DNA of 32,000 bases from Candidatus Electronema halotolerans (GCA_942493095.1 OW818675.1:750001-782000); one strand, 5' to 3'. Counted from the stretch's first letter, positions 7,901-32,000 are shown. Numbers and translations are program-made. Notes: generated by a model not told the origin, from the letters alone.

Positions 7901-7902
7901 TA

Positions 7903-9297: not shown

Positions 9298-9299
9298 TA

Positions 9300-15596: not shown

Positions 15597-17096
15597 TTAT
15601 GCTGCTGAAAGCGGGGCAAGAGTGAACAGCGAGTGATCAAATGAGACTTTTTCTGACTTGCTGCCGTTTTTTTTCAACATGTCAAGCAGGCGCAGGCCTT
15701 CCAGCCGCAGCACTGCTGGAAAAAGGGCCTTGTAGATCGGACAGGCCGAGGAGGTGACAGCCAGCGGACAGCCTCCGGCGCACCAGTATTTCCAAGCGCA
15801 GTTCTTGCAGGAAGCCTTTTCCGCAACTGAGAAATGCTGAGGCCAAGCCGCCCGCAGCAGAGTCAGCGGGTTGTCATCTTGAGCCGTTGCCAGCGGCCTG
15901 TTCATCCGCATCTGGCAGGAATGCGCCTGCCCGGCACAGTCAAAGACCACATAGCTGCTGCCCGCGCCGCAGGCGTGCTTATGGGCGGCAGACAGATCGG
16001 CCCGATCCAGCAGTGAGGCCAGCAGGCTGTGGTCGGGCAGGTCAGCTTCAATCACCTTGAAGGCGGCCTGCATGCCGCTGATGATCCGCCCCTCCTCCAG
16101 CTTGGTGGCATGAGTCGGGGCGCAGGCATTGTCCCGGCAGAAGTTGAAGCTGAAAGGCAGTTTCCGTGCCAAAAGCCACTGGGTCAGCTCTGACAGTCCG
16201 TCAACACTGTCTTTGCTGACTGTCACTGAAATATCCGGGGTCAGGCCGCAGGACAGGGCCAATTCAATTGCCTCCATTGCGGCAGCAGCAGAGTCTTTTC
16301 CGGCAGCATCGCAGCGCGGCGTGTCCCGCAGTCCGTCCAAGGAAATCATCAGGCGCAGGCCGAGCTGTTGCATTAACTCAATGATTTCCTCGGTCAGCAG
16401 GGTGCCGTTGCTGAGGATCACCCCGTCCAGCTCCAGGCCGTGCCGCCCGGCTTGGTCTTGGGCATATTGGTGCAGTTCCGCAGCAAGGGGAAAACAAAGC
16501 AGCGGCTCGCCGCCCGCATACTTGAGCTTGACCCGGCAATACTGATGCGCTGCTGCTGAACGGAAAGTTGCAGCAATGGCGGCCTTGCCCGTTGCAGGCG
16601 GCATGTCAAGCGGCTGATGGGGCCGGTAGCAGTAGGCGCAGCGCAGGTTGCATCGGTCGGTGAGATGCAGCCAGACTGAGAGGGTGTCAGGGATTTCAGC
16701 AGGCGGTTCCTGCGGGCAGGCGGCAGGGGTGAGCAGGTTGAAGGCGGTCATCTGGGCCAAGGTGTCCTGCACCGCCGCTGCGCCCCAAGTGTCTTTCCAC
16801 GCGGCAGGAATATCTGCCAACCGATGCGGGTTTTGAAAATATGCGGCCATCTCCGCTGCCGGGTGGTTGAGCAGGCCGATGGCGGAATGCCGGTTGAGGC
16901 TGATCTGATAGTCAGCGTTTAAGGGCAGGAAGACTGTGCTGCTATCCACTTGGCAGAGTGTGTCCGCAGCAGGTGGAAGTACGGCGGCAGGGAGCGGCAG
17001 GGCAAGGCTGCACGCGCAGTCACATTGGGCCTGCACGGCAGCGGCGGCAGTGCGGGTGAAAAAGACTTGCGGTGCCTGCTCGTGGTTCATGCTCAT
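15597..17096 (-). CDS. Radical SAM enzyme with C-terminal SPASM domain (peptide/protein-modifying maturase type) and a ~140-aa N-terminal extension
   Basis: CxxxCxxC in LHLTDRCNLRCAYCY. The C-terminus is Cys-rich and SPASM-like (CGAGSSYVVFDCAGQAHSC...CKNCAWKYWCAGGCP). ATG at 17096 (MSMNHEQ) is preceded by GGGGGGAAG and overlaps the upstream stop as ATGA. Confidence 0.85.
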   Translation of the reverse strand: MSMNHEQAPQVFFTRTAAAAVQAQCDCACSLALPLPAAVLPPAADTLCQVDSSTVFLPLNADYQISLNRHSAIGLLNHPAAEMAAYFQNPHRLADIPAAWKDTWGAAAVQDTLAQMTAFNLLTPAACPQEPPAEIPDTLSVWLHLTDRCNLRCAYCYRPHQPLDMPPATGKAAIAATFRSAAAHQYCRVKLKYAGGEPLLCFPLAAELHQYAQDQAGRHGLELDGVILSNGTLLTEEIIELMQQLGLRLMISLDGLRDTPRCDAAGKDSAAAAMEAIELALSCGLTPDISVTVSKDSVDGLSELTQWLLARKLPFSFNFCRDNACAPTHATKLEEGRIISGMQAAFKVIEADLPDHSLLASLLDRADLSAAHKHACGAGSSYVVFDCAGQAHSCQMRMNRPLATAQDDNPLTLLRAAWPQHFSVAEKASCKNCAWKYWCAGGCPLAVTSSACPIYKALFPAVLRLEGLRLLDMLKKNGSKSEKVSFDHSLFTLAPLSAA

Positions 17097-19798: not shown

Positions 19799-22002
19799 CC
19801 TCTTGGTTCTTTATAGAATTTTTCAATTTGTTTGCACAGTTGTTCATAAGGTTCCTCATTGAACTGCTCTCCGCGCAGGCAAAAATTGACCATGAAACGA
19901 AATTCCCATTCTCTTTTTTCATCTTCCAATCTGCTCTTTAAATTGATGATATTGTCTACCCCATCAGGATATTTAATAAGCAGCTCTAAATAATTACGTA
20001 AAATTCCATCATCGGCAAAAAAATGGCAGTACAATTTCTCTCGATTGGCAGGATTATCAGAGCATCCTAATTGCAATTCTTGATACATCCCTTCAATGGC
20101 GATAATCTCCGGTCGTGAGATAGAATTCTGTAAATCTGCTTGATATATGTCTCTGGCGCACCAGCATAGATCAAGAAAACATTCGTTTTCTTCCAAACGC
20201 AGACGAATAGCCAACAAGCGGCGTACGATTTCATCTTGAATAAAACCATTTTTTCTTTTAACTAGATAGGTTGATGTTAAGGCATCTTCTAACTCGTTCA
20301 CATCATCTTGCCATTCAATCAAATTAAATTTAATAATTTCTTTTAAAATACGATGATTATATCGACGAAAAACACTTAATACATCAAATATATTTTTAAG
20401 TTTATCAGGGATTGATTTTCTAATTTCACGTGCACTTTCTAAAATTTGCTCTTCATGACATTTTTGAAATACTGCAATCGGATCTGACTTAAATATATCT
20501 TGGTTAATAATCTGCGCCATCAGCCTTGGATGGCCTCCAGTAATGTGCATAATTTGTGCAGCAAAAAGATCAAGTGCTGTCTCATTTTTTTCCGAAAAAT
20601 ACGGTTGAACCGTAGCTCGCACATGTCGAAATTGAAATGGGCTTAATGGACGAACAAGAAGAGGAATTTCTCTTGCCTTGCCATCCCATATTCCACCTAT
20701 ATATCGTCCGGCCATCCGCACCCGAAAATTAGGAAGCACACGTTGCATAGTTGGTAAAGACTTATTTAAAAATGAATCTATTTCTTCGATAGGAAATTTT
20801 TCTATGTTATCAATAATAAAAATAATTCTGTGATTTAATTTAAAACGGTCGCTGAAATCTTCAGAAACAACATTCTCAATAAACTTAACTAACTCTTTTT
20901 GATCATCAATACATTCTGCAAGCGAATAAATTAAATCCATAACTGATAATTTTTTTATATGAATACAACACCATCCAGCTTTAGCATGCTCATGCTCGAT
21001 TGCTCTCAAAAGTTCTGTTTTTCCATATCCAGCAGGTGCATCAAAAAGGATATACTGAGCTGCATTATTTCCACATGCTTCAGAACGTTCATCCTTTCTA
21101 TTTACAAAATTAAATAGATACTTATCAGGCAGAATAATTTTCTTGTATATACTAATATAATAATTATCCTTAATCCAGTTAACCAAATTATAAATTTCAT
21201 CTCCACTCCGTGCCCATTTTAAAAAATTCATGCTCATATCTTCCAGTGATGTACATTTCGGTAATTCAAAGAATGGCAACGAGTTATAAAAATCTGTAAA
21301 TGGTTCATTAAATAATATTCCTTCTATATGTTCAAGCTGTCTGATTATATATTCCTTATGCAAAAAAAATTGAACATATAAATACAGTTCTCCTATCTTT
21401 TCAATTGGCACAGCGAAAGGAATTGTCTCTTCTCTTGTTTCGTTAACATATCTCTCTGAAATAATACCAACAACTCTTCCTGATGCTTCATGATACACAG
21501 GAGAGCCGCTCATCCCTCCTCGAAGTGTCTGCTTTCCAATGGCCTCCGACTCAAGTTGCAGCAGCTCAACACCGCTGCTGACGAGAGTGACATATTCCCC
21601 AATCGTGCCCGCAGCAGGCAATCCCTCAAATATACGCGATTCTCTGAATCCAAACGTTTTGAATTCACAAGATTGCTGCTTGTCATAACGCCATTCTCCC
21701 AGAGGTAATACAAGTGCCTCCGATGGCTTACCATCCTTGAGACGAAGCACAGCCATATCCACTTTGTCTGCCATCTTCACTTCGTCTGGAGATGATGAAG
21801 ACGGCCATATACATTCGGCAGGATATTCCTGCTTATTGAAAACCACAGTTAATGATTTTATCGGCCTACCTCTTTCTTGATCTTTAACTAAATGAAAACA
21901 AGTCAGCAGTGTTCCGTCATTGTCAATAAAAAAGGCGGTGCCAGCTTCAAAACCAGTGCCGACACCCTTGACACATGCTACAGCGTTCCGCAGTTCAACC
22001 AT
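19795..22002 (-). CDS. Trypsin-like serine protease fused to a STAND-type P-loop NTPase
   Basis: 735 aa. Catalytic triad His37 (LTCFHLV), Asp82 (VDMAVLRL) and Ser165 (GGMSGSPVY). Walker A APAGYGKT (322-329), Walker B IIFIIDN (Asp398), NB-ARC-like ITGGHPRLM (488-494), and a helical C-terminus without obvious repeats. ATGA overlap with the next gene at 19795-19798. Confidence 0.8.
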   Translation of the reverse strand: MVELRNAVACVKGVGTGFEAGTAFFIDNDGTLLTCFHLVKDQERGRPIKSLTVVFNKQEYPAECIWPSSSSPDEVKMADKVDMAVLRLKDGKPSEALVLPLGEWRYDKQQSCEFKTFGFRESRIFEGLPAAGTIGEYVTLVSSGVELLQLESEAIGKQTLRGGMSGSPVYHEASGRVVGIISERYVNETREETIPFAVPIEKIGELYLYVQFFLHKEYIIRQLEHIEGILFNEPFTDFYNSLPFFELPKCTSLEDMSMNFLKWARSGDEIYNLVNWIKDNYYISIYKKIILPDKYLFNFVNRKDERSEACGNNAAQYILFDAPAGYGKTELLRAIEHEHAKAGWCCIHIKKLSVMDLIYSLAECIDDQKELVKFIENVVSEDFSDRFKLNHRIIFIIDNIEKFPIEEIDSFLNKSLPTMQRVLPNFRVRMAGRYIGGIWDGKAREIPLLVRPLSPFQFRHVRATVQPYFSEKNETALDLFAAQIMHITGGHPRLMAQIINQDIFKSDPIAVFQKCHEEQILESAREIRKSIPDKLKNIFDVLSVFRRYNHRILKEIIKFNLIEWQDDVNELEDALTSTYLVKRKNGFIQDEIVRRLLAIRLRLEENECFLDLCWCARDIYQADLQNSISRPEIIAIEGMYQELQLGCSDNPANREKLYCHFFADDGILRNYLELLIKYPDGVDNIINLKSRLEDEKREWEFRFMVNFCLRGEQFNEEPYEQLCKQIEKFYKEPRG

Positions 22003-22004
22003 TC

Positions 22005-22343
22005 TCAGCTATCCTTCCGCTTCCATGTGAGATTGACTTTCAATGCCGCTTCAACACCAGACTGAACCAACACCACGCCCGCATCAGATTTAACCGCCAA
22101 ACTGAATTCCAATGAGGCTTCATCTGGACTGGCCTTCTTGATCGCATCCTTGAAGCCGTTGGCCAATGTGCCAATCGTAACGGACATCTGATCAAAAACT
22201 TTTTCTGTAACATCGGCTGCTTTCTGGGCTTGTTCCCTTATTCCCATTTTCTGAAACCCGCCGCCCTGAGCAGGTTCAAAAGGCTCCACAGCAATTTTGA
22301 TTTCACCATCTCCAACAGGAACAGTAAGATAACGAATACTCAC
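22005..22343 (-). CDS. Small soluble protein resembling the trypsin-co-occurring domain 2 (Trypco2) family
   Basis: 112 aa. GTG start at 22343 with AAAGGAG 7 nt upstream; stop lies 2 nt before the protease ATG. The layout is an N-terminal strand region with Gly (IKIAVEPFEPAQGGG), a central helix, then PDEASLEFSLAVKSDAGVVLVQSGVEAALKVNLTWKRK. This matches my memory of Trypco2-type sequences; it was not verified by HMM. Confidence 0.5.
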   Translation of the reverse strand: MSIRYLTVPVGDGEIKIAVEPFEPAQGGGFQKMGIREQAQKAADVTEKVFDQMSVTIGTLANGFKDAIKKASPDEASLEFSLAVKSDAGVVLVQSGVEAALKVNLTWKRKDS

Positions 22344-22533
22344 AAGTCACTCCTTTTGCTGAAAATTCAATTAGTTCGGCATCTATCACATCTCTTTTCC
22401 CGCAGCAGTTTTCTCGAACATACCTGAATCAGGACAGCAGCTCAAGCAAAATCAGATGGTTGTCAAAGGAAAAATCATGCAGGTTGCTGTTTCAGTCAAA
22501 CTGCCCCAGCAGCTCTGAACTGATAAGCAGGCA

Positions 22534-23199: not shown

Positions 23200-24745
23200 T
23201 ATCCGCCTCCCTCTGCGGTTCCGCCTGATCCTCCTGCGGGCTGATCAGGCTGGGAAATTCAATAAATATCTTCACGCCTTCGCCCGGAGCTGACTGAAGG
23301 CGGAAAGTGCCGTTCATCACCCGGACCCGCTCCTGCATGCCAAGCAGGCCAAAACGCTTTTTCTCTCTGACCTTGCGGCAAATTTCTTCCACAGCAAAGC
23401 CGCTGCCATTGTCCTCAATGCGGAGAATGACATTGGCCCCGGACGCAATCAGCCGGACATCGGCCTGACTTGCCTGCGCATGTTTGCCAATGTTGTTCAG
23501 GGCCTCCTGCACCAAGCGGTAGATGTTGATAGCGTGCTCGGCAGCAAGCGGCAGCTTGTCCGCGCCAGCCTTGGAGAATCTGACCGGAATGCCGCTTTTG
23601 CGGGCAAAGGCCCGGCAGCAGTCGGCCAGCGCGCTCGCCAAGCCGATCTGCTCCAGACCGGGTGGCCGCAGGTTGTAGGACAGCTCGCGCACGGTCTTGA
23701 TGCAGCGGTCAATCTGCCTGCCCCAGTCGTGCCGGGCTTGAGTCAGGGCCAGCTCATCCTCAACCGGCTCGCTGAAAAAGGAGTCGCCCGCAATTTTGAG
23801 CGAGGACAGTTCCTGGGCCACCTGATCATGCAGATAAAGGGCGATCTGCTGCCGCTCATTTTCCTGCACGGCCAGTAGCTGCTGAGTGAGATGATGGACC
23901 TGCTCCTCAGCCCGGCGCAGCTCGGCATTGGCCTGCACCAGCTCCTCTGTCCGCTCCTGCACCTTGGCATCCAAGTCCTCGTGATAGCAGGTGAGCTGCT
24001 CGGCCATTTTCTCAAACTCTTGAGCAAGAAACTCGAATTCATCGCCGGAATGAATGCCCAAGCGGTGCTGAAGATTGCCTGCCCCGATCTGCCGGGTGCC
24101 CTCCTCAAGGATGCGCACCGGCCCCAGCACTGAGCGCAGCATCAGAACAAAGACCGCCACGGTCAGCAGCACTGCGACCGCACTGGTCAGGGCGACCACG
24201 ATCAGGGTGTGCTGATACTTCTCCGTGACAAAGGCTTCAGTCTTGGTCAGTTCCTGCAAATGGAGATGAAGATGCTCGTCAATCACGGCCTCCATCTTTT
24301 TCAGCTCCTCGCGCACCACCACGGCAATTTGGGCAAACTCCTCCTCTGGCCAGCCTTGGGCGGATTCCTCAAGAATATATTGCGACAAGGTCATGGCAAG
24401 AATGCTGTGATGAAGCATCTCATGCGCGGCCAAGGATGCCGGGTCAGTGTTCTGATGGCTGTGCCGGGCATTGTGCTTGGTGATCAGCTCCTTGAGCTGG
24501 GCCGCCTTGGCCGTGATGCTCCTCCGGTCAATGTGCTTTTCCCGCAGTCCTGCCTCAAGGGAGAGCAGCAGCTTTTTCAGCTCCAGCATGGCCGAGACAT
24601 TGAAGGCCACGTCCTGCTGCATTTTGTGGAACTGGCTGTGAATGCTGGAAAAAGTGCAGATGCAGAACAGGCTGAGTGCGAAGATGACCGCAATCAGCGG
24701 GGAGAAATAGAGAATGAAGCGGTTGCGGAGGCTGAGTTGCAGCAT
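23168..24745 (-). CDS. Membrane sensor histidine kinase (2 TM, HAMP, HisKA_3, HATPase_c; NarX/LiaS-like)
   Basis: HAMP (VRILEEGTRQIGAGNLQHRLGIHSGDEFEFLAQEF), H-box ALYLHDQVAQELSSL, N-box EALNNIGKHA, and G-boxes DNGSGF and GLLGMQERV. Overlaps the regulator gene by 32 nt. Confidence 0.9.
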   Translation of the reverse strand: MLQLSLRNRFILYFSPLIAVIFALSLFCICTFSSIHSQFHKMQQDVAFNVSAMLELKKLLLSLEAGLREKHIDRRSITAKAAQLKELITKHNARHSHQNTDPASLAAHEMLHHSILAMTLSQYILEESAQGWPEEEFAQIAVVVREELKKMEAVIDEHLHLHLQELTKTEAFVTEKYQHTLIVVALTSAVAVLLTVAVFVLMLRSVLGPVRILEEGTRQIGAGNLQHRLGIHSGDEFEFLAQEFEKMAEQLTCYHEDLDAKVQERTEELVQANAELRRAEEQVHHLTQQLLAVQENERQQIALYLHDQVAQELSSLKIAGDSFFSEPVEDELALTQARHDWGRQIDRCIKTVRELSYNLRPPGLEQIGLASALADCCRAFARKSGIPVRFSKAGADKLPLAAEHAINIYRLVQEALNNIGKHAQASQADVRLIASGANVILRIEDNGSGFAVEEICRKVREKKRFGLLGMQERVRVMNGTFRLQSAPGEGVKIFIEFPSLISPQEDQAEPQREADNEHAEADSDY

Positions 24746-24944
24746 CGGAACTTGGGCATGGGTTCAAAAAAACACTGCGCAGTTGTCCGGCTGAACATAC
24801 AGGAAAAGGAGGGATTTGCCCAGTCTCTTTGCAAGGGATGGGCGGAGAAAATGTTTTTTTGGCGTGTTGAAACCAAGAGATTTCCTTGCAGGAGGTATTG
24901 GCGCATGCAGCCCGTTCGTATTTTCATTAAGTCCTTGCTTTCAA

Positions 24945-25112
24945 TAGCCGAGGCCAGGCCGTTCCTTCTGATTCGCCAAAATCAGGTCGTGACGGATGCC
25001 TGCTGCTCGCCGTGATCAACACGCAGATTTCAGCCGCGAGGCGATGGAAAAACGGATGGTCTCCAAAGCGCGCACCGTTCCCCTTTGCCTGTCAAAGGGA
25101 TGCGCACATCGT
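24945..25112 (-). pseudogene. Mosaic remnant of a second copy of the YgiQ radical SAM gene (three internal blocks, same orientation as the intact gene)
   Basis: Three blocks align to the intact gene, each with scattered mismatches or small indels:
- 24945-25001 resembles 29807-29857;
- 25002-25028 resembles 29917-29943;
- 25029-25112 resembles 30178-30267.
The intervening ~59 and ~234 bp of the intact gene are missing. Confidence 0.7.
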
Positions 25113-25173
25113 GTGCTGAATCTGATGTGCCACAGAAGAAAGCACTGTCACAGGCTATTTCTTAGCAGTGTAC

Positions 25174-26081
25174 GACAATTTTGGGTAATGGTGAATCGTG
25201 AGTGATGGGTTGAAAATATGTTGAAATTGCTGGAAAATATAATATACTGGCGGCAAGGGATGCTCTCTGTCCCATCGGCTCTTCGTCGGATGCGCATGTC
25301 AAGCCGTCATTATGAAAAAAACAAACATGGAGAAGAAAGCTGTGCAATGCCCAAGATGTGGTTCATCAGTCATTGTGAAAAATGGCTCCAATGCGAATGG
25401 GAAAAAGAAATTTTTATGTAAGGACTGCTCACGTCAATTCGTTGAGAATCCTCAGAACAAAACAATATCTGATGCTGAATGGCGCATAGTTGATAAGCTT
25501 CTTGTTGAAAGAATCTCCTTGGCTGGGATTGCGAGAGCCGTTTCCATCTCAAAAAGATGGCTTCAGGAATATGTTAAAAAAAAACGAAATGAAGTCAAAA
25601 AAGAGGCTTTCAATATGTCCCGCAACGGAAAAATCTTCATCGAAGCCGATGAAATGTGGACTTTCGTTGGTGACAAGGAAAATGATATTTGGATATGGCT
25701 TGCTGTCGAGAGAAGAACAAAGCTTATTGTCGGATATCATGTTGGAAAAAGAGATAATGCAGGAGCAGCCGCCTTGTGGGACTCCCTTTCTGAAGATTGC
25801 AAAAAGAACGGAATATTTTTTACGGATGGACTCGCCGCTTATTCGAGCGTGTTTCCAGCTGAAAGGCATAGAATTGTCAGCAAAGGAAGCGGAAAAACAA
25901 GTCATATCGAAAGGCTCAATTTGACATTCAGACAAAGATTGTCTGCACTTGTCAGAAAGACCATTTCATTTTCGAGAAGCATCGAAAATTTAACTGCATC
26001 TGTCTGGAGGTTCATTCAAGATTATAATAATAATCTTTTGTTTAATTGATCACTCACAGTTCACCATCACCCAATTTTGTC
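25174..26081 (+). mobile_element. IS1-family insertion sequence (~908 bp, single fused transposase ORF)
   Basis: Imperfect ~33-bp terminal inverted repeats: GACAATTTTGGGTAATGGTGAATCGTGAGTGAT on the left and GACAAAATTGGGTGATGGTGAACTGTGAGTGAT on the right (reverse complement). I see no flanking direct repeat. Confidence 0.8.
25312..26049 (+). CDS. IS1-family transposase (InsAB-like, single frame)
   Basis: N-terminal zinc finger CPRCGS...CKDC, an HTH region, and DDE motifs IFIEADEMWTFVG, FFTDGLAAY and HIERLNLTFRQ. Start is 25312 or 25327 (MEKKAVQ). Confidence 0.9.
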   Translation: MKKTNMEKKAVQCPRCGSSVIVKNGSNANGKKKFLCKDCSRQFVENPQNKTISDAEWRIVDKLLVERISLAGIARAVSISKRWLQEYVKKKRNEVKKEAFNMSRNGKIFIEADEMWTFVGDKENDIWIWLAVERRTKLIVGYHVGKRDNAGAAALWDSLSEDCKKNGIFFTDGLAAYSSVFPAERHRIVSKGSGKTSHIERLNLTFRQRLSALVRKTISFSRSIENLTASVWRFIQDYNNNLLFN

Positions 26082-27154
26082 AATTCATACCTGTGGCGCA
26101 GAGAATCTTCAGTAAGGGGAACAGTATAATATAATGTGCTATAAAGATTAAAACCTATTTTGGTTAGGCAATTATTTTTTTTTGAAAAATCATTTATCGC
26201 CTTTTTTGTTTCATCATCTATGAAATTTGTCAATCTAACTTTTTTATACCCATGCAAGAAAAGCAATTCCTGCACTTTATTTATTTTTGTTTTCTCATCA
26301 ATCTGGTAATTCCATTGTTTTTTTACATAGTACTCTACTGTAGGATCAGGCTGTGCACCATCTAATAGCCTCCAATATGGCAGATCAAGATATTTTCCAA
26401 TAAGTTGGATAACACTTGTCTGAACAAGCAAGCGTAAGGCAGCATGTCTTCCTTCAACCTTTTTAACTTCCCCTTTCAGGCCAAGGGTTGGCCCAAGTAT
26501 TGTAAAACCAAGTTCTTTTTTGCCGATTCCCTTATGCACCTGCATAGTATTAGATGTCTGAATACGAGGAAGTCCGCTCATTGTATCAATATTCAGCATG
26601 TTTAAATCAATAGTTATCCTTGCAGTGCTTGTTTTTTCACCCTGCATATACTCAATGCCAAAAGGAGCTTGTTGTCCAAAATCATCAGTTTCATAACCTA
26701 AATTTGTAGAATCTTCTTTGGTTTCCATACCTCTGTCGAATTCAGTAATACCTCCTATTATAATAGCAGCAGGAACAAGTTTATTTTGTAAATTATTATA
26801 CCCTAAATTTTTCAGGTTAAGAACAATATCAGGACGATAAGGAATAAAAAGAATATTTCCTCCAATCGCATTCAACGCGCTTACGGTCATTTCTGTGATA
26901 TCATAGGGTATTTCTGCTTTTGTATGTTCTGCTGTTCCTGTGTTGTCACTGATTTTGTCAATCATAATTCTTGATCTCACTCCATAGATCTCAGCCATTT
27001 TGCCAAGATCCTTGAGAACATGACTTAATTCTGTTTTATTAACTTCTATGACTCCAGAAGGAATTTCTATATCAACTTGGCGCGGATCTATCTTAGCGCA
27101 TCCTAAAAAAAGCAGTGCCAAAAAAAAATATACCAATATTTTGATAATAGACAT
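26054..27154 (-). CDS. CsgG-family outer-membrane secretion lipoprotein with a C-terminal peptidoglycan-binding-like domain; extreme 3' end replaced by IS1
   Basis: ATG at 27154 (MSIIKILVYFFLALLFLGCA, with lipobox Cys). Three segments line up with E. coli CsgG as I remember it:
- IDKISDNTGT...MTVSALNAIGGNILFIPYR (cf. IQDETGQ...LVTALKDSRWFIPLER);
- AAIIIGGITEFD;
- RITIDLNMLNIDTMSGLP.
The tail VQELLFLHGYKKVRLTNFIDDETKKAINDFSKKNN looks like PG_binding_1. The last 9 codons and the stop lie inside the IS1 inverted repeat. Confidence 0.7.
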   Translation of the reverse strand: MSIIKILVYFFLALLFLGCAKIDPRQVDIEIPSGVIEVNKTELSHVLKDLGKMAEIYGVRSRIMIDKISDNTGTAEHTKAEIPYDITEMTVSALNAIGGNILFIPYRPDIVLNLKNLGYNNLQNKLVPAAIIIGGITEFDRGMETKEDSTNLGYETDDFGQQAPFGIEYMQGEKTSTARITIDLNMLNIDTMSGLPRIQTSNTMQVHKGIGKKELGFTILGPTLGLKGEVKKVEGRHAALRLLVQTSVIQLIGKYLDLPYWRLLDGAQPDPTVEYYVKKQWNYQIDEKTKINKVQELLFLHGYKKVRLTNFIDDETKKAINDFSKKNNCLTKIGFNLYSTLYYTVPLTEDSLRHRYELTKLGDGEL

Positions 27155-27175
27155 TATGCGCAACAAATACTTTTT

Positions 27176-27210
27176 AAATAAAAAATCCGCCTTTTGAAAA
27201 GGCGGATTTC
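27176..27210 (-). terminator. Strong rho-independent terminator between the small secreted protein gene and the CsgG-like gene
   Basis: Perfect palindrome AAATCCGCCTTTT-G-AAAAGGCGGATTT (27183-27209). On the minus strand it runs into TTTTTTATTT. Confidence 0.75.
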
Positions 27211-27230
27211 ACAAAAATTTCAAGAAAAAA

Positions 27231-27575
27231 CTATTTCATGGATATGGCCGCCTTGTCCCCCTGAGACTGATCAATAATTATGATATCACCATGAATATTA
27301 CTCCCTGAACCAACTATTACTGAGTTGACAGAAATATTTTTTGCTGTTCCATTCGCATCGTCAATAACAACATCGTCGCTGCTCATAGATGTATATGATT
27401 TACTGATAGAATTAAGAACAATGTAACTTATATTCTTCTGCATTTTGCCTAACTCGTGATAATCAGTTATAGAATCATCTATATCAATGCCATCGTCTAT
27501 ATCCAAGGCAAGACATGAATTGATGATTGATACTGATATGGTTATTATAAGCAGTAAAATTTTCATAGTTTTCAT
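27231..27575 (-). CDS. Small secreted protein (114 aa), Asp/Ile/Ser-rich, unknown family
   Basis: ATG at 27575 (MKTMKILLLIITISVSIINSCLA) or 27566, with a signal peptide. The C-terminal half (NISVNSVIVGSGSNIHGDIIIIDQSQGD) looks beta-strand rich. The ORF-track 5' extension to 27713 overlaps the upstream gene and is rejected. Confidence 0.5.
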   Translation of the reverse strand: MKTMKILLLIITISVSIINSCLALDIDDGIDIDDSITDYHELGKMQKNISYIVLNSISKSYTSMSSDDVVIDDANGTAKNISVNSVIVGSGSNIHGDIIIIDQSQGDKAAISMK

Positions 27576-27617
27576 AATAATTGACACCTGTGTTTTTTCT
27601 TCCTTACTTAAAGGAGT

Positions 27618-27645
27618 CAGGGAGTCAACATAAATTGACTCCCTG
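27618..27645 (-). other. 11-bp perfect stem hairpin just downstream of the repeat-protein gene
   Basis: CAGGGAGTCAA-CATAAA-TTGACTCCCTG. On the minus strand the T-run lies 5' of the stem rather than 3', so this is not a canonical terminator. It could be an RNA stability or processing element. Confidence 0.35.
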
Positions 27646-27663
27646 AAAAAACGCTGATCGTTG

Positions 27664-28506
27664 TTACTGGATGGCAACACCACCTGCAACAGCGGTTGCT
27701 CCTCCAGTTGCAACAGCAGTCACATCATCAGCATCAACTTTGTTGTTCACATTACCGACGGTAACCCCCCATTTAAGAGATATTCCGCCTGCGACGGCTG
27801 TTGAATATTCACCTTTAGCTACAGCAGTGATGTCATCAGCCTTAACATTGTTGTTTAGATTGCCAACACCATCAACAAAATCAGTGACGGTAATCCCTCC
27901 CGCAGCTGCTGTGGCATCACCTTTAGCCACAGCAGTGATGTCATCAGCCTCAACATTATTGTTTATATTGCCGATATTGTAGGCATCACGAAGACTAATT
28001 CCGCCTGCAGCGGCAGCCGCCCCTAAACCTTCAGCTACAGCAGTAATATCATCAGCATCAACCTTGTTGTTCACGTTGCCAATGTTATGAGATCCTGAAC
28101 CCTTTATATCGATACCACCTGCCGCAGCACTTGCGCCCCACGGTCCCTTTGCGACAGCAGTCACATCATCGGCATTAACATTATTGTTCACATTGCCAAT
28201 GGGACCTGATTCTCTGATGTTGATGCCTGCCGCAATCGCACTTGAGCCATCCTCAGATCCAGCTCCCTTTGCGACAGCAGTCACATCACCAGCCTCAACC
28301 TTGTTATTAACATTACCATAGTCATAAGAATTCTCAATGCTGATGCCGGCCGCTGTCGCTGTCACTGTCCCTTCTCCTGGTCCTCCATGCTGTTTAGCAA
28401 CAGCAGTAATGTCGTCGGCATCAACCTTGTTATTCACATTGCTCGCAAAAGCACTTCCTGCGCACATAATAACAGATACTGCTACGATAATTGCTGTCTT
28501 GTTCAT
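27664..28506 (-). CDS. Secreted repeat protein (280 aa): signal peptide plus seven imperfect 30-42 aa repeats built around GNVNNKVDADDITAVAKG...AAGGI
   Basis: ATG at 28506 (MNKTAIIVAVSVIMCAGSAFA) with AAGGAG upstream. The repeats are read directly from the translation. The protein is rich in Asn, Ala, Gly, Val and Asp. Apart from one Cys in the signal peptide it has no Cys, and there are almost no aromatic residues in the repeat cores. Confidence 0.75.
   Translation of the reverse strand: MNKTAIIVAVSVIMCAGSAFASNVNNKVDADDITAVAKQHGGPGEGTVTATAAGISIENSYDYGNVNNKVEAGDVTAVAKGAGSEDGSSAIAAGINIRESGPIGNVNNNVNADDVTAVAKGPWGASAAAGGIDIKGSGSHNIGNVNNKVDADDITAVAEGLGAAAAAGGISLRDAYNIGNINNNVEADDITAVAKGDATAAAGGITVTDFVDGVGNLNNNVKADDITAVAKGEYSTAVAGGISLKWGVTVGNVNNKVDADDVTAVATGGATAVAGGVAIQ
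27711..28446 (-). repeat. Seven degenerate ~100-127 nt tandem coding repeats within the repeat-protein gene
   Basis: The plus-strand core ACAGCAGT(C/G/A)A(C/T)(A/G)TCATC(A/G)GC(A/C)T(C/T)AAC(A/C/T)TT(G/A)TT(G/A)TT recurs near 27713, 27821, 27921, 28033, 28151, 28271 and 28398. Confidence 0.8.
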
Positions 28507-28533
28507 GTCGATCTCCTTTGTTGGGGATTGAGT

Positions 28534-28572
28534 AAAAAAACTTCCTGCTGAGTTTCTTTCTACAGCAGAAAG
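28534..28572 (-). terminator. Rho-independent terminator/attenuator between the DUF2807-like gene and the repeat-protein gene
   Basis: Minus strand reads CTTTCTGCTG-(12 nt loop)-CAGCAGGAAG followed by TTTTTTT. The stem is 10 bp with one G-U. Only ~27 nt separate it from the repeat-protein ATG. Confidence 0.6.
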
Positions 28573-28591
28573 ATTTGAAAAGCCAATTGAG

Positions 28592-29317
28592 TCACTCTGC
28601 GGCATCCACTCTGCCAGCACCTGTTGTTTCAGATATTACAACAGGATGTCCTGCATAAACAACATGTCCTGCGCCGAATGCTTTGGCTGTCAATTTTTTT
28701 CCGGCATTAACAGTGGCTCTGCCACTGCCACTTACAGACACAAAAGCCTCTTCAGAGAAGAGTTTTTCACATTGCAATTTCCCGGCTTCAGATATGACCG
28801 CCGTTATTTTCTCGATGTTTCCTTGCGCTGCTACAGAAGCAGCACCACTGACATCAATGTTGAAATTTTCAACATTGCGTATGTCTTCAATCATAACTTC
28901 CGCCGCGCCATCAACTGAAATGGATGAAATACTTTTCACCTGCACATCCAGCTTCACGGGGCGCAATGTTGAAATATTTTTTTTCACCCCTATTTTCAAC
29001 ACGTCCCCCTCCACCTTTGTTTTTATCAAAGGAACAACAGAGCTGTCCGCTGAGATAAAAACAATATTTTCCTGTCCAAACTTGATATGAATTTTTCCAG
29101 CAAAATTTCTTATATCAATCTGGCAAAAATCTGGGAGCACTCTTCTCTCTTGTTTAAGAACTCCTGTGTCAAGAGTTGCTCCTGGAGACAAGGCATGTCC
29201 ATTGATCACAATACCGCCTGCCACAGCTTGACTGCCTTGCTTGACAACTGAAGCAGCTATTGTGCGAAAAGTCATAACAGACAAAAGGAATATTGCAGCG
29301 GCAAAAATTAACTTCAT
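28592..29317 (-). CDS. Secreted DUF2807 / GIN-domain (adhesin-head-like beta-helix) protein
   Basis: Signal peptide MKLIFAAAIFLLSVMTFRTIAA. The periodic pattern is typical of DUF2807: IHIKFGQENIVFISAD...GDVLKIGVKK...ISVDGAAEV...IDVSGAASV...VSVSGSGRATV...AFGAGHVVYAGHPVVISETTGAGRV. Confidence 0.6.
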   Translation of the reverse strand: MKLIFAAAIFLLSVMTFRTIAASVVKQGSQAVAGGIVINGHALSPGATLDTGVLKQERRVLPDFCQIDIRNFAGKIHIKFGQENIVFISADSSVVPLIKTKVEGDVLKIGVKKNISTLRPVKLDVQVKSISSISVDGAAEVMIEDIRNVENFNIDVSGAASVAAQGNIEKITAVISEAGKLQCEKLFSEEAFVSVSGSGRATVNAGKKLTAKAFGAGHVVYAGHPVVISETTGAGRVDAAE

Positions 29318-29387
29318 ATTTTATGTCTAACATGTTTTATGTTACCTGTCAAATATTTTTTTGCAAAAAAATAAATGAGAATAATTA

Positions 29388-31100
29388 TTATTGACCATTG
29401 TGCAGCATTGCCCCTTTCTGCCGCTCCCGCTGTTTCGTGTTCTGTTCAACAAAGCAAGGCTGACCGGTGAAGGGATTTTCGCCTGTCCAATACATCACGG
29501 TTGACCAAGTTGAAGGCGTGGGGGTAAAAATCTGCACCTGCTTGGGCAGCAGCTTCAGCTCGCGCAAACAGAAGCGGCGCAGGGCCTCCATGTCCTGCTG
29601 TCGGCAGCCAGGATGGGCGGCAATCAGGTAATAGGTGAGGAACTGCGGCAGTTCCTCCTCCTTGCTGATTTGGTTGAACAGCTTGCGGAAGCGGAGCAGG
29701 CTTTCCATCCCCGGCTTGCCCATGCAGGCCAAGACTTGCGGCTGGCAGTGCTCAGGCGCGGCCTTCATCTGGCCGGAGACATGATGCCGGATCACTTGCC
29801 GCAGGTAGCTGAGGCCGTTCTTCTGATCCGCCAAAATCAGATCGTGACGGATGCCTGATGCAACAACCGCCTGCTTCACGCCCTTCAGCGAACGCAGTGC
29901 CTCCAGCAAGGCCGTCTGCTCGCTGTGATCAACTCGCAGATTCTTGCAGACGGTCGGATAGAGGCAGCGGCGGTCAGGGCAGCTCCCCTTGGTCAGCTTT
30001 TTTTGGCATTCGATGCCGTACATATTGGCGGTCGGCCCGCCCACGTCATGGATGCGGCCCTTGAAGCCCGGGCTTTCCGCCAGCCGTCGGGCCTCGGCCA
30101 AAATTGACTGCCTGCTCCGCCACGTGACAGTGCGGCCCTGATGCACAGCAATGGCGCAGAAGTTGCATTCGCCATAGCAGCCGCGATGCGAGGCGATGGA
30201 AAAACGGATGGTCTCCAAGGCGCGCACCTTTCCTTTTTGCCTGTCAAAGGGATGCGCGTCATGCTGATAATCCAAGCTGTGGACCTGATCCAGTTCTGCC
30301 TGACTGAGGGGCGGCTGGGGCGGATTATGAATCAGCCAGCGTGAACCGTGCTGCTGGGCCAGTCCCTGCGCGGTGATCGCATCATTGTTGGCATAGAAAA
30401 GGCGGAACATTTCGGTAAAGGCCTTTTTCTCCGCAGGCGAGCTGCCAGCAACCTCCTCGTAAGATGGCAAAGTAAGATATGTTTCCGGTTTTGCCTTGGC
30501 CGCATAGCAGAGACCGCGAATCTGATGCGCATCTCCACCGTCGCGCAGGGCTTCAGCCAATTCAACCACACTGCGTTCGGCCATGCCATAGAGCAGATAA
30601 TCCGCCTTGGCATCAAGGAGAATGGAACGGCGCACCGCATTTGACCACCAGTCATAATGGGCAATGCGGCGCAGGCTGGCCTCAATGCCGCCGAGCACGA
30701 TTGGGCAGGTCTTTTTGAAATGGGCGCGGATCAGATTGGCATAAACAAGCACGGCCCGGTCAGGACGGCGGTTGTTGAGACCGCCGGGCGTGTGATCGTC
30801 CTGCTTTCGTTTTTTTCCTGAAGCCGTGTAGTTGGCGACCATCGAATCCACGCAGCCGCTGCTCACGCCCCAGAAGAGGCGCGGCTCGCCAAGACGGCGG
30901 ATGTCATCGCTGCGCAGGTCTGGCTGGCTGATGATGCCGACCCGGAAGCCTGCCGCCTCCAGCACCCGACCAATCACAGCAGCACCGGCAAAGGGTGAGT
31001 CTATGTATGCGTCGCCATTGACAAGGATGACATCCAAGCCGTCCCAGCCGCGCTGGCGCAGCTCCTGCCGGGTCGTGGGCAGGAAAAGATTTTCAGGCAT
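29388..31100 (-). CDS. ygiQ: YgiQ-family (UPF0313) radical SAM protein
   Basis: N-terminus MPENLFLPTTRQELRQRGWDGLDVILVNGDAYIDSPFAGAAVIGRVLEAAGFRVGIISQPD is characteristic of YgiQ. The radical SAM cluster motif is SHRGCYGECNFCAI. ATG at 31100 overlaps the upstream gene by 8 nt; the ORF-track extension to 31229 is rejected. Confidence 0.9.
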   Translation of the reverse strand: MPENLFLPTTRQELRQRGWDGLDVILVNGDAYIDSPFAGAAVIGRVLEAAGFRVGIISQPDLRSDDIRRLGEPRLFWGVSSGCVDSMVANYTASGKKRKQDDHTPGGLNNRRPDRAVLVYANLIRAHFKKTCPIVLGGIEASLRRIAHYDWWSNAVRRSILLDAKADYLLYGMAERSVVELAEALRDGGDAHQIRGLCYAAKAKPETYLTLPSYEEVAGSSPAEKKAFTEMFRLFYANNDAITAQGLAQQHGSRWLIHNPPQPPLSQAELDQVHSLDYQHDAHPFDRQKGKVRALETIRFSIASHRGCYGECNFCAIAVHQGRTVTWRSRQSILAEARRLAESPGFKGRIHDVGGPTANMYGIECQKKLTKGSCPDRRCLYPTVCKNLRVDHSEQTALLEALRSLKGVKQAVVASGIRHDLILADQKNGLSYLRQVIRHHVSGQMKAAPEHCQPQVLACMGKPGMESLLRFRKLFNQISKEEELPQFLTYYLIAAHPGCRQQDMEALRRFCLRELKLLPKQVQIFTPTPSTWSTVMYWTGENPFTGQPCFVEQNTKQRERQKGAMLHNGQ

Positions 31101-32000
31101 CCTCACGCAGCAGGAGGAAGAGACCGGCAGCAGCCACGGTGAGATGAATGGAAAGGGCTGCGGCCAAGGGATTGAGATAATCCGCCTTGGCCAAGGATTG
31201 CAGAATCGCCCATATTCCCCAGCAGACAAAGGCCATGCCGCAGCTCACCGGCACAGCTAAGGACAGGTCGCGGCCCCATTTTTGATAGACTGTGAGCAGC
31301 AGGGGCAGGCCGAGCAGGAGCAGGGGCAGGCCGAGCAGGATATACGATATTCGGCCATAGAACTGCGCCCAGGCAAGTGCCCGGTCTTCTGGACTCTGCT
31401 TGCCGCGCAGGGCCTCCCGGTACAGCTCCAGCAGGGACAGCTCATAATTGCGATACTGAGGAACGAAAAAATCAGCGGGTTTCTGCGGAAACCTGAAACC
31501 ACGGCTGCTGAAGACTTCACTGCGGAAGCCGCCGCCGTCCTTGGCCACTTGCGCCTGCCCATTAAGTAGAATCCATGCGCCGTTCTGCCAGAAAGCAAGT
31601 TCTGCCGCAACCAAGGTGCGCAGCTCATACTTTTTATTCCACGTGGCGTAGGAAAAAAAAGCAAATTCATTGCTGCGCGGATCAGGGCGGGCAAAGGAGT
31701 AAAAGGTGTCATCGCCCTGATAATAATAGCGGCCATTGCGGTAAATGCCGAGCGGCACCTTGCCCTTGACCTCCTTGTTCCAGATTCGGTTGGTCTGGGC
31801 CGCAGTTTTTGGCAGGACAAACTGGGACAGGGCCATGAGCAGCAGGGTGGCGATGATGCCGCCGCCAATGATCGGCGCAGTGATCTGCTTGAGGGAAACT
31901 CCGCCCGCCTTGAGCGCGGTCAGCTCGTTGGAATGATTGAGCACTCCCAGCGTGACCACTCCGGCCAGCAGAATGCAGACCGGCCCCATCTGCTCGATGA
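31093..32000 (-). CDS. LptF/LptG-family (YjgP/YjgQ) LPS export permease, C-terminal ~300 aa (N-terminus beyond the right edge)
   Basis: LTALKAGGVSLKQITAPIIGGGII, a periplasmic beta-jellyroll-like segment (YYYQGDDTFYSFARPD...) and three C-terminal TM helices. The frame stays open to position 32000. Confidence 0.8.
   Translation of the reverse strand, partial: IEQMGPVCILLAGVVTLGVLNHSNELTALKAGGVSLKQITAPIIGGGIIATLLLMALSQFVLPKTAAQTNRIWNKEVKGKVPLGIYRNGRYYYQGDDTFYSFARPDPRSNEFAFFSYATWNKKYELRTLVAAELAFWQNGAWILLNGQAQVAKDGGGFRSEVFSSRGFRFPQKPADFFVPQYRNYELSLLELYREALRGKQSPEDRALAWAQFYGRISYILLGLPLLLLGLPLLLTVYQKWGRDLSLAVPVSCGMAFVCWGIWAILQSLAKADYLNPLAAALSIHLTVAAAGLFLLLREDA

Follow-up and report, generated by a model that had tools for sequence, protein, structure and literature searches.

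A candidate curli-like secretion and assembly module for a beta-solenoid repeat protein on an apparently mobile island of Candidatus Electronema halotolerans

What could a protein resembling CsgG, the curli export channel, be exporting in Candidatus Electronema halotolerans if its cargo is not a curlin? The question is raised by four genes, g1 to g4, that lie co-oriented on the minus strand between positions 29317 and 26054 of the 32,000-nt stretch of DNA analyzed here (the window). g1 (28592-29317) encodes a secreted 241-aa protein with a DUF2807 (GIN-type beta-helix) domain, g2 (27664-28506) a protein of 280 aa from its ATG that consists of a signal peptide and seven tandem repeats, g3 (27231-27575) a secreted protein of 114 aa counted from MKTMK, and g4 (26054-27166) a lipoprotein of 370 aa if translation begins at a TTG, or of 366 aa if it begins at an ATG at 27154. 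The mechanical ORFs of g2 and g3 are longer, reaching a GTG at 28620 and a start at 27713, respectively. ORF translation bore out all four genes, and the GC content of the cluster is 0.40 vs 0.50 in the remainder of the window, which contains two further AT-rich islands as well as high-GC stretches of 0.55-0.60; the AT-rich island of four co-oriented genes described in the initial annotation is thus confirmed. Signal peptides had been proposed for all four products and were found on all four when the N-terminal sequences were judged by eye: a K/R n-region precedes a hydrophobic core 12 or more residues long, which is followed by an AxA-type site, with cleavage expected at TIA/AS in g1, AFA/SN in g2 and CLA/LD in g3, or by a lipobox, LFLG/C, in g4.

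The case for export begins with g4, a putative outer-membrane channel. The initial annotation called its product clearly CsgG-like, a description that stands for fold and profile comparison and for the sequence segments it quoted, which are present, but not at the level of curated HMMs. The Pfam CsgG model (PF03783) gave E 0.2 (11.4 bits vs a cut-off of 20.8, not reached) and matched at E<=0.1 in only 6 of 40 g4 relatives (best 0.02). NCBIfam HfaB (NF037935) was the best curated-model match, below threshold (19.4 bits vs a cut-off of 300, over the 64 residues 39-102), and CsgG was not found when the g4 family profile was compared with PDB sequences. The kinship is established only by fold and profile comparison. 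In a Foldseek search of the PDB with the AF2 monomer model (pLDDT 77), the top 25 matches were all CsgG (E 4e-8 to 3e-5), with a probability of 1.0 and a TM of about 0.5 on the target. An hhalign comparison with E. coli CsgG (E 9e-5, 222 columns) was collinear from the lipobox cysteine to the C-terminal helix and paired FIPYR, GGITEFD and RITIDLNMLNI of g4 with WFIPLER, EGSIIGYE and QIAVNLRVVNV of CsgG. The lipobox residue Cys23, which pairs with that of CsgG, is invariant in the 40 relatives. On the predicted fold and these alignments, we take g4 to be a genuine but remote CsgG-fold lipoprotein whose CsgG-like domain spans residues ~24-270 (26357-27097, minus strand).

The segments equivalent to the CsgG hairpins are residues ~154-173 (TM1) and ~219-237 (TM2); in CsgG these two amphipathic beta-hairpins build a nonamer's 36-stranded barrel. 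Alternating hydrophobic positions are conserved across 40 diverse family sequences in both TM1 (F/L156, V/Y158, F163; I/F169, V/I171, Y173) and TM2 (L219, F221, I223; F/L228, L230, V234), and pore-forming hairpins are plausible on this pattern. The TM1-equivalent exceeds TM1 of CsgG in length and polarity, and residues 150-176 have pLDDT <50 in the monomer model. The constriction residues of CsgG, Y51/N55/F56, are absent from g4 in the hhalign comparison, where the loop of g4, TGTAEHTKAEIPYD, falls 5 residues short of its CsgG counterpart; at this position the g4 family conserves E85, I86, P87, D89, T91 and E92.

Following the CsgG-like domain is a C-terminal helical domain of the PG_binding_1/2-like type (residues ~275-367; 26066-26344, minus strand), modeled with pLDDT >90. 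The suggestion that g4 carries an extra peptidoglycan-binding-like tail finds its support in the family, given that PG_binding_1 (PF01471) matches 29 of the 40 members (best E 3e-6); in g4 itself PG_binding_2 (PF08823) is sub-threshold (E 0.07, 13.8 bits vs 21.1). The family profile also matched 5tv7, a PG-binding protein in the PDB, at E 0.11, and some g4 relatives contain DUF4384. g4 probably binds peptidoglycan.

A protein of this kind could also serve the envelope without a translocation pore. We considered that g4 might be a CsgG/TolB_N-fold ring or adaptor in the periplasm, anchored in the outer membrane and bound to peptidoglycan, and that g2 and g3, with g1, might form periplasmic beta-solenoid structures such as an outer membrane-peptidoglycan spacer or an envelope-stress structure. 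The PG-binding domain, the polar, low-confidence TM1-equivalent and the unconserved constriction are consistent with this view, as are the non-pore proteins FlgT (E 7e-4) and GNA1162 (E 3e-3) lower in the Foldseek list; CsgG/TolB_N-fold lipoproteins that form no pore (Vibrio FlgT, Neisseria GNA1162/DUF799, and others from Helicobacter and Chlamydia) share the fold of g4 at lower significance. The window cluster has no flagellar context. The gene neighbors of relatives point in the same direction. An LPP20-domain gene, absent from the window cluster, lies downstream of g4 in non-cable relatives, and the LPP20 family includes the ring-forming FlgP; a weakly BamE-like gene is next to g4 in both loci of Methylococcales type that were examined (L077 and L085), and in L077 an OmpA-family gene is as well. 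In addition, beta-helix domains that have been considered in connection with PSP envelope-stress systems include DUF2807. On the other hand, the E-value of FlgT, which ranks first among the non-pore relatives, trails that of CsgG by some four orders of magnitude (7e-4 vs 4e-8), the CsgG alignment covers the complete domain with its two hairpin segments, and dyad hydrophobic alternation is kept in those segments in the 40 diverse sequences. A cysteine-free, repeats-only protein of variable repeat number, such as g2, would also be typical of exported fiber or surface proteins. We regard a purely periplasmic scaffold as the less likely reading, and the export channel remains our preferred reading of g4.

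The presumed cargo of this channel is g2, in which seven tandem Asn/Gly/Ala-rich repeats, each 36-42 aa long, take up the entire protein from the signal-peptide site (AFA/S) to the C-terminus. The repeats follow the consensus GN[VIL]NN[KN]V.A.D[IV]TAVA.G..[ST]A.A.G[IV].[IVL] and are visible in the DNA as 7 copies spaced 108-126 nt apart. The protein is free of cysteine and of His-rich metal-binding motifs, and no N-terminal targeting segment was detectable apart from the repeats. A beta-solenoid had been suspected at the outset, and the AF2 model is indeed a confident all-beta repeat stack (pLDDT 88, pTM 0.84) with three strands in each of the seven repeats. A match of g2 to a known family with an unrelated export route had been named as a point against a new pathway; we found no credible family in Pfam or NCBIfam and no significant fold match in the PDB (Foldseek; best E 0.31). 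Comparison with CsgA and FapC structures gave no match (Foldseek E ~3; CsgA 8c50, E 3.1), the hhalign probability against CsgA was 0.5%, and Curlin_rpt (Pfam) was not matched at E<=1 in g2 or 23 relatives. In some of the relatives, weak Pentapeptide matches were obtained (26 bits vs an NCBIfam equivalog cut-off of 125). Like pentapeptide-repeat and other beta-solenoid proteins, g2 is repeat-stacked and all-beta, but it repeats every 36 aa, not every 5 or 20, and it is secreted, whereas the characterized pentapeptide-repeat proteins are, as far as is known, cytoplasmic. g2 is presumed to be an exported beta-solenoid subunit that may be of amyloid or fiber nature and may be exported in a CsgG-dependent way.

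Even with g4 as a channel, g2 could act outside the cell as a monomeric surface beta-helix, for example in adhesion or in the binding of ice, minerals or polysaccharides, with g1 and g3 as extra cargo or anchors. The closed seven-rung stack is confidently predicted as a monomer, and the structures that it weakly matches by fold, namely those of TPS domains, ice-binding proteins and tailspikes, are beta-helices that exist as monomers. The repeat count in the family ranges from 2 to 25, which could tune length without polymerization, and the same repeats form a C-terminal module in FecR-domain proteins. However, the repeats fill g2 from the mature N-terminus to the C-terminus with no capping elements, which favors end-to-end stacking, and some operons contain two g2 paralogues, a pairing that recalls a major and a minor subunit. 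A partial repeat at the N-terminus of the DUF2807 protein of cable bacteria further suggests templating: residues 27-39 of g1 (QGSQAVAGGIVIN) are faintly like the second half of the g2 repeat (repeat HMM iE 0.008-0.011, and 2e-8 to 3e-8 in the Ca. Electrothrix laxa orthologue). We consider the monomeric role unlikely.

The tightest genomic partner of g4 is g3, which lies directly upstream of it in ~95% of loci. In the g3 family the mature N-terminus is acidic and conserved (D-[LI]-D-D-G-I..DDSI), the linker that follows it is variable, and the C-terminal part contains the motif NSV..G.G....GDIIIID.S.GDK; 69 clusters of the family were found among the 1.84 billion representative proteins searched. 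No match to g3 was found in Pfam or the PDB, and Pfam, NCBIfam and hhalign detected no similarity to CsgE or CsgF; with the same tools, the reported lack of any CsgA, CsgB, CsgE or CsgF homologue was confirmed. g3 may act as a nucleator, as was initially suggested. The identification of g1 as a GIN-domain beta-helix protein was upheld by Pfam DUF2807 (PF10988; E 5.5e-24, 85.4 bits vs 24.2, profile positions 12-181 of 181), which also matches the g1 orthologues in loci L001, L002, L003 and L066. In the g3-g4 intergenic spacer lies a terminator-like hairpin (27182-27210, minus strand) with a 13-bp stem followed by a T-run (-17 kcal/mol, z -3.9). Hairpins occur at the equivalent position in locus L006, with a different sequence, and in L001, making three loci in total; this element is possibly an attenuator giving a high subunit:channel ratio.

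The core of the module is carried by about 200 bacterial species, mostly anaerobic, and thus is not specific to the source organism. In 79 loci that span Desulfobacterota, Nitrospirota and Gammaproteobacteria, the order g2-g3-g4 is kept, with g3 in ~95% and g2 in 86%. The initial annotation had staked its proposal on the genes being syntenic elsewhere, and synteny was found across these three phyla; neither this point nor the family search on g2 refuted the proposal. Its four-gene unit held in part: the trio g2-g3-g4 is conserved, but DUF2807 is variably linked, in about one third of cases (13/40 loci with wide flanks), and in non-cable relatives it lies downstream, beyond three more conserved genes that include the one for the LPP20-domain protein. 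The view that the pathway is undescribed agrees with our finding that no curated family and no paper matched the conserved core in the searches made.

The curli system of E. coli (csgDEFG/csgBAC), with its CsgG channel, CsgE, CsgF and the subunits CsgA and CsgB, is the reference for such a module. Common to both are a lipoprotein of the CsgG fold, collinear from lipobox to C-terminal helix with both hairpin segments; a Sec-dependent, cysteine-free protein of imperfect repeats with conserved Asn/Gly/Ala, which for g2 is predicted to be stacked and all-beta; a small secreted protein whose gene immediately precedes that of the channel, as csgF does; and, in some operons of the module, two cargo paralogues, as with CsgA and CsgB. 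The differences are equally clear. By sequence and profile, g2 is not similar to CsgA nor g3 to CsgE/CsgF, and no csgE, csgF or curlin genes are associated with g4. The g2 repeat is 36-42 aa with three strands, whereas the curlin repeat is ~22 aa with two strands and follows the motif S-x5-Q-x-G-x-x-N-x-A-x3-Q, which g2 lacks along with any Curlin_rpt match. g4 misses the Pfam CsgG cut-off, does not have the Y51/N55/F56 constriction and has an added PG_binding domain (with DUF4384 in some relatives), and the accessory genes of the module (DUF2807, LPP20 and others) are not known in curli. CsgG-type proteins export CsgA, and the Caulobacter holdfast surface proteins HfaA and HfaD depend on HfaB for their surface localization (PMC6707917). 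The Caulobacter HfaA/HfaB/HfaD system is similar to the module in that the gene for a CsgG-like lipoprotein accompanies genes for surface proteins that are small or contain repeats, but here we found no HfaA- or HfaD-like proteins and no holdfast polysaccharide context. HfaB is not known to have a PG-binding tail.

With a probability of roughly 0.45, we propose that the products of the cluster secrete and assemble a new beta-solenoid cargo in a curli-like (type VIII-like) manner. Judging from the signal peptides, all four products would cross the inner membrane by Sec. g4 would then be lipidated and sorted to the outer membrane, where its CsgG-fold domain would oligomerize into a ring, the two amphipathic hairpins would form a beta-barrel and the C-terminal PG_binding domain would tie the ring to the cell wall. 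g2 would be threaded unfolded through this channel and would fold outside into a stacked beta-solenoid, acting as a surface protein or an end-to-end polymer. At the channel, g3 could be an adaptor, plug or coupling factor that is analogous, not homologous, to CsgE/CsgF, and g1, whose presence varies with lineage, could anchor, cap or template g2. The g3-g4 hairpin would hold channel expression below subunit expression. Within this picture, the gene content, the repeats, the CsgG homology at the level of fold, the predicted all-beta stack, the synteny and the signs of island mobility are observed, and pore formation by an oligomer, g2 export, polymerization and the parts played by g3 and g1 are inferred. 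In support of this module we counted the CsgG-first Foldseek ranking, the collinear hhalign result, the hairpin hydrophobicity, the invariant lipobox cysteine, the PG_binding family matches, the pure-repeat g2, synteny, mobility as a unit and the positional hairpin. Counted against it were the missed CsgG and HfaB models, the absent constriction, the polar TM1, the lack of a distinct g2 targeting segment, the failure of g2 to match CsgA or FapC in structure, FlgT and GNA1162 in the fold list and the LPP20 gene in non-cable relatives. A broader claim, which we advance only tentatively, is that the trio g2-g3-g4 represents an unrecognized CsgG-type (type VIII-like) branch with a PG-tethered pore, a non-CsgE/CsgF partner and Asn-ladder beta-solenoid fiber subunits of 2-25 repeats. 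If true, this would add to curli and Fap a third family of functional-amyloid-like fibers in Gram-negative bacteria; the branch would occur widely in sulfate reducers, methanotrophs and Nitrospirota, and among cable bacteria it would move horizontally.

The nearest g4 relatives are all from Ca. Electrothrix or Ca. Electronema, and cable bacteria form a clade in which the gene order is distinct and g4 is shorter, which could suggest a function specific to cable bacteria, as part of the periplasmic conductive fibers or of cell-cell junction structures. An identical protein was also found in sequencing runs that are near, by accession number, a run with a Ca. Electrothrix laxa homologue. We consider such a function very improbable: the core module is present in about 200 non-cable species of three phyla, g2 does not have the Cys or His-rich motifs of a metal-binding protein, the genes sit on an AT-rich mobile island at varying loci and not in the core gene set, and a literature search found no paper linking the module to cable bacteria.

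The island in cable bacteria is apparently mobile, and the cluster was found in different genomic neighborhoods in different cable bacteria. In the window, it lies directly 3' of a ygiQ-type radical-SAM gene (29388-31229, minus strand; Pfam Radical_SAM_N, E 4e-118), and in L001 the cluster is flanked by 112-nt direct repeats, 96% identical, of the 3' end of the ygiQ gene. An IS1-family element (25181-26074, plus strand; transposase ORF 25312-26049) has inserted into the last codons of g4. Its transposase scores 191 bits vs a cut-off of 100 (NCBIfam NF033558), and its 26-nt terminal inverted repeats are at 25181-25206 and 26049-26074. Homology of the island to L001 stops at 26072, and the last ~six codons of g4 are supplied by the IS1 end. 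Beyond the island and the IS1 lies a second ygiQ 3' region, a patchy remnant at 24956-25105 on the minus strand (direct repeat D3), which consists of three blastn segments with 92-94% identity to 29812-30257.

The cluster consists of four minus-strand genes, all recovered in an ORF listing of 24000-32000 as four co-oriented genes, just as the initial annotation had claimed. They encode a DUF2807 protein (g1; 29317-28592, 241 aa), a seven-repeat protein (g2; 28506-27664, 280 aa counted from ATG), a small secreted protein (g3; 27575-27231, 114 aa) and a CsgG-like lipoprotein (g4; 27166-26054, 370 aa from TTG). Starting at the ATG at 27154 gives a 366-aa form of g4, which is the version seen in public data (P0001). 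Signal sequences were judged by eye: the N-termini of g1 to g3 carry a K/R n-region and a hydrophobic core, then an AxA-type site, whose place in g4 is taken by a lipobox (LFLG|C). The best-supported reading of the cluster is a curli-like two-step export system, to which we assign a probability of roughly 0.45. Sec would carry all four products into the periplasm. The lipidated g4 would oligomerize to form a CsgG-type pore in the outer membrane, tied to the peptidoglycan. Unfolded, cysteine-free g2 would then cross the pore and fold or stack outside, with g3 working at the pore and the DUF2807 protein serving as a lineage-variable anchor or template.

The closest relatives of g4 (60 to 91% identity) belong to Ca. 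Electrothrix and Ca. Electronema or were found in related metagenomes. At the loci L001, L002, L003/L007 and L006, the order is constant, with DUF2807, one or two repeat proteins, the small protein and the CsgG-like lipoprotein, even though the flanking genes differ. With one genome scanned per species, g4 relatives turned up in 206 species, covering Desulfobulbaceae, Desulfobacterales, Desulfuromonas, Nitrospirota/Thermodesulfovibrionia, Methylococcales and Chromatiaceae. Given so wide a spread of the module, a function particular to cable bacteria is unlikely. Synteny was counted by running g1-g3 HMMs on six-frame ORFs from 83 non-redundant loci. By a strict script, the gene immediately upstream of g4 is a g3 homologue in 70 of 79 loci, and discounting ORF starts that were over-extended raises this to about 75 of 79. 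Upstream repeat proteins of the g2 type occur in 56 of 65 loci. The initial annotation had made its hypothesis depend on synteny of all four genes; only 13 of 40 loci have DUF2807 within 6 kb, and the conserved unit is the trio g2-g3-g4.

In many relatives outside the cable bacteria, the operon runs on downstream of g4 before reaching DUF2807 (L066 8326-11162; L029 4641-7115; L044, L057, L040, L079 and others). The order there is a secreted protein of about 120 to 200 aa with the motif AGNK..MV...EMD..NKQ, a protein of about 250 aa with an LPP20 domain (E 5e-9), an N-terminally membrane-anchored protein of about 100 aa (PPPNYGRFQISSW) and then DUF2807. Two Methylococcales-type loci (L077 and L085) have a weakly BamE-like gene after g4 instead, and L077 also has an OmpA-family gene. 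These LPP20, OmpA-family and weakly BamE-like neighbours favour the main rival explanation, that g4 is a non-pore, peptidoglycan-bound periplasmic ring organizing periplasmic solenoid proteins, which we regard as rather unlikely overall.

The initial statement that g4 is clearly CsgG-like held up by fold search and profile alignment but not by curated models: g4 scored E 0.2 and 11.4 bits against Pfam CsgG (cut-off 20.8) and 19 bits against NCBIfam HfaB (cut-off 300). CsgG was not found among PDB sequences by phmmer with g4 alone or by hmmsearch with a 40-sequence profile. An AlphaFold2 (AF2) model of g4 built with 40 homologues (pLDDT 77, pTM 0.73) gave a Foldseek list whose top 25 entries are all CsgG (4uv2, 6l7a, 4uv3 and 6si7; E 4e-8 to 3e-5), and the non-pore lipoproteins FlgT (7e-4) and GNA1162 (3e-3) rank below. 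The hhalign alignment of the g4 family with E. coli CsgG (E 9e-5, probability 59%, 222 columns) is collinear from the lipobox Cys through the C-terminal helix. In it the segments quoted originally as CsgG-like do pair with CsgG: FIPYR with FIPLER, GGITEFD with EGSIIGYE and RITIDLNMLNI with QIAVNLRVVNV. Two g4 segments fall where CsgG has its barrel hairpins TM1 and TM2, and their alternating hydrophobic residues are kept family-wide. The TM1-equivalent is 13 to 19 residues longer than that of CsgG, more polar, and modelled with pLDDT below 50 in the monomer; the constriction loop is five residues shorter and has no Y51, N55 or F56. Both the polar TM1-equivalent and the missing CsgG constriction argue for the periplasmic ring. 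The C-terminal 100 residues or so of g4 are helical (pLDDT above 90). The extra peptidoglycan-binding-like domain proposed for this tail has support at the family level, with PG_binding_1 matches at this position in 29 of 40 relatives (best E 3e-6), but the window protein itself stays below threshold (PG_binding_2).

Under the export reading, g2 would be the cargo. Beyond its signal peptide it has seven tandem repeats of 36 to 42 aa and no other region: repeat 1 begins at the predicted mature N-terminus and repeat 7 runs to the stop codon. The repeat, GN[VIL]NN[KN]V.A.D[IV]TAVA.G...[ST]A.A.G[IV].[IVL], is also visible as seven copies in the DNA, and the protein has no cysteine. No credible Pfam or NCBIfam family was found for g2, Curlin_rpt included; matches to Pam16 and DUF1659 in Pfam were dismissed as compositional (signal peptide and Ala/Gly-rich stretches). 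The AF2 model of mature g2, made from a 7-row alignment, is all-beta (pLDDT 88, pTM 0.84), with one long strand of 15 to 18 residues and two short strands in each of the seven repeats. This pattern points to a seven-rung beta-solenoid, a geometry we count as inferred because it was read from the strands rather than from coordinates. Foldseek of the model against the PDB gave no significant match (best E 0.31), and the weak matches are nearly all beta-helix or solenoid proteins. The amyloid proteins CsgA (8c50) and FapC (9u4u) appear at E of about 3, and there is no significant CsgA similarity by Foldseek or hhalign, so that g2 was rejected as a curlin. A variant that keeps g4 as a pore and makes g2 a monomeric surface beta-helix seems improbable to us. 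Among g2 relatives collected from the loci around g4 relatives, members are always pure repeat (consensus GAVINKSNVKNAANVAIGKGNTANMGSVNIKGSNVK). The shortest has 2 repeats (93 aa) and the longest 25 (972 aa), and a long and a short paralogue are often adjacent.

Elsewhere, three proteins (P0123, P0125 and P0126) have an N-terminal FecR domain followed by three C-terminal copies of a 36-aa g2-type repeat and end in ..GSV.IE/K, as g2-type proteins do; the repeat therefore also serves as a module on other secreted proteins. P0121 (244 aa, on an 888-bp contig), in which a short-chain dehydrogenase N-terminus is joined to four g2-type repeats, is probably an assembly or gene-calling chimera and not a real fusion.

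The partner g3 has no family in Pfam or NCBIfam and no relative in the PDB. It was rejected as a CsgE or CsgF homologue (hhalign probability below 1%), which, together with the result for g2, agrees with the original statement that no CsgA, CsgB, CsgE or CsgF homologue is present. Its C-terminus was also rejected as a g2 half-repeat (repeat HMM E>=0.18 on g3 proteins). In an alignment of 36 relatives, the mature N-terminus is acidic and strongly conserved (D-[LI]-D-D-G-I..DDSI..Y). Behind it come a short amphipathic stretch, then a variable Lys/Gly/Ser linker, and at the C-terminus the conserved motif NSV..G.G....GDIIIID.S.GDK. The family is small, with 69 clusters at E<=1e-3 in a search of 1.84 billion representative proteins. 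No broad-family member matches an NCBIfam model. The fourth protein, g1, is a clear DUF2807/GIN beta-helix protein in Pfam (85 bits, cut-off 24). The DUF2807 protein of Ca. Electrothrix laxa (L003 3425-4234) carries one N-terminal g2-type repeat at residues 41-65 (VSSGKITEVAKGKDSQAVAGGISIS, iE 2e-8), which is the single hint of templating. The window g1 has a weak half-repeat at residues 27-39 (iE 0.008), and the signal is likewise weak in L001 and L002. We rejected the idea that all DUF2807 partners carry such a repeat, since it is significant in Ca. Electrothrix laxa only; the broad-family repeat HMM found none at the N-terminus of DUF2807 proteins.

To our knowledge, CsgG-type pores, the workhorse of nanopore sequencing, are the only outer-membrane channels dedicated to amyloid-subunit export, and cargoes are assigned only for curli and, less firmly, for the Caulobacter Hfa anchor. 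The module would add a third class of cargo, whose repeats have a different geometry, together with a new accessory protein and a variant pore that is tethered to the cell wall and differs in its constriction. Its hosts include anaerobes of environmental importance (Desulfobulbaceae, cable bacteria among them, Desulfobacterales, Desulfuromonas and Thermodesulfovibrionia), and little is known of their surface and biofilm matrix proteins. Given that the cluster comprises four genes in 3.3 kb, the proposal is directly testable by heterologous expression. Curli and Hfa both combine a lipoprotein of the CsgG type with a cargo that is repetitive or amyloid-like (PMC6707917; on curli diversity, PMC3521004), and the module, which likewise pairs such a lipoprotein with a repeat protein, would work like both. 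It differs from curli in that g4 falls below the Pfam CsgG threshold, lacks the constriction residues and adds a peptidoglycan-binding domain, and in having cargo and partner unrelated to those of curli, with no CsgA, CsgB, CsgE or CsgF homologues. A literature search found no paper connecting CsgG-like lipoproteins, DUF2807, DUF4384, LPP20 or cable bacteria; a recent structural catalogue describes CsgG-like pores as taxonomically broad and notes nothing further (PMC13397529).

The GC content of the cluster is 0.40, against a mean of 0.50 for the remaining window (two further AT-rich islands included) and 0.55-0.60 in its high-GC stretches. In cable-bacterial loci the cluster lies 5 to 21 points under its flanks (10 to 21 in the window, L001, L002 and L006; about 5 in L003), and the dip is not seen in Desulfobulbus and other relatives. 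L001, which shares 82% DNA identity with the window and 91% identity in the g4 protein, has 112-nt direct repeats (295-406 and 3770-3881; 96% identical) that bracket the four genes and duplicate the 3' end of a neighbouring ygiQ-type radical-SAM gene; they form an att-like signature of island insertion. In the window there are an intact ygiQ (29388-31229) and patchy fragments of a second copy (24956-25105, matching 29812-30257); no integrase is present. The fragments lie beyond an IS1-family element (25181-26074; transposase 191 bits, cut-off 100; 26-nt terminal inverted repeats) that sits in the last codons of g4 and swaps about nine native C-terminal codons for about six. The end of g4 (..KLGDGEL) is IS-derived, given that homology to L001 ends at 26072. 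This tail is not conserved in the family, and the clipped protein is therefore probably still functional.

The g3-g4 spacer holds a strong terminator-like hairpin on the minus strand (27210-27182; 13-bp stem then a T-run; -17 kcal/mol, z -3.9). L006 (6955-6981) and L001 (~2605-2625) have hairpins at the same position that differ in sequence, and none is present in L002. The hairpin suggests attenuation, by which the subunit genes would be expressed above the channel gene. The spacer is about 780 bp with no called gene in Ca. Electrothrix laxa (L003 6220-7001) and 50 to 80 bp in other loci.

Of the two other AT-rich regions, the stretch at 6882-10317 contains two copies of IS630-family transposase genes (DDE_3 plus HTH), which lie on opposite strands; in one case the HTH part is fused to a 592-aa ORF whose long N-terminal region has no assignment. 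The island at 17093-22500 (GC 0.33-0.40) carries genes for a Trypsin_2 peptidase-domain protein of 735 aa and an ATPase/TPR (STAND-like) protein of 901 aa. Identical contigs in public data have a Trypco1-domain gene called right after the response-regulator gene, adjoining the peptidase gene, and the island resembles a conflict or defence-type system.
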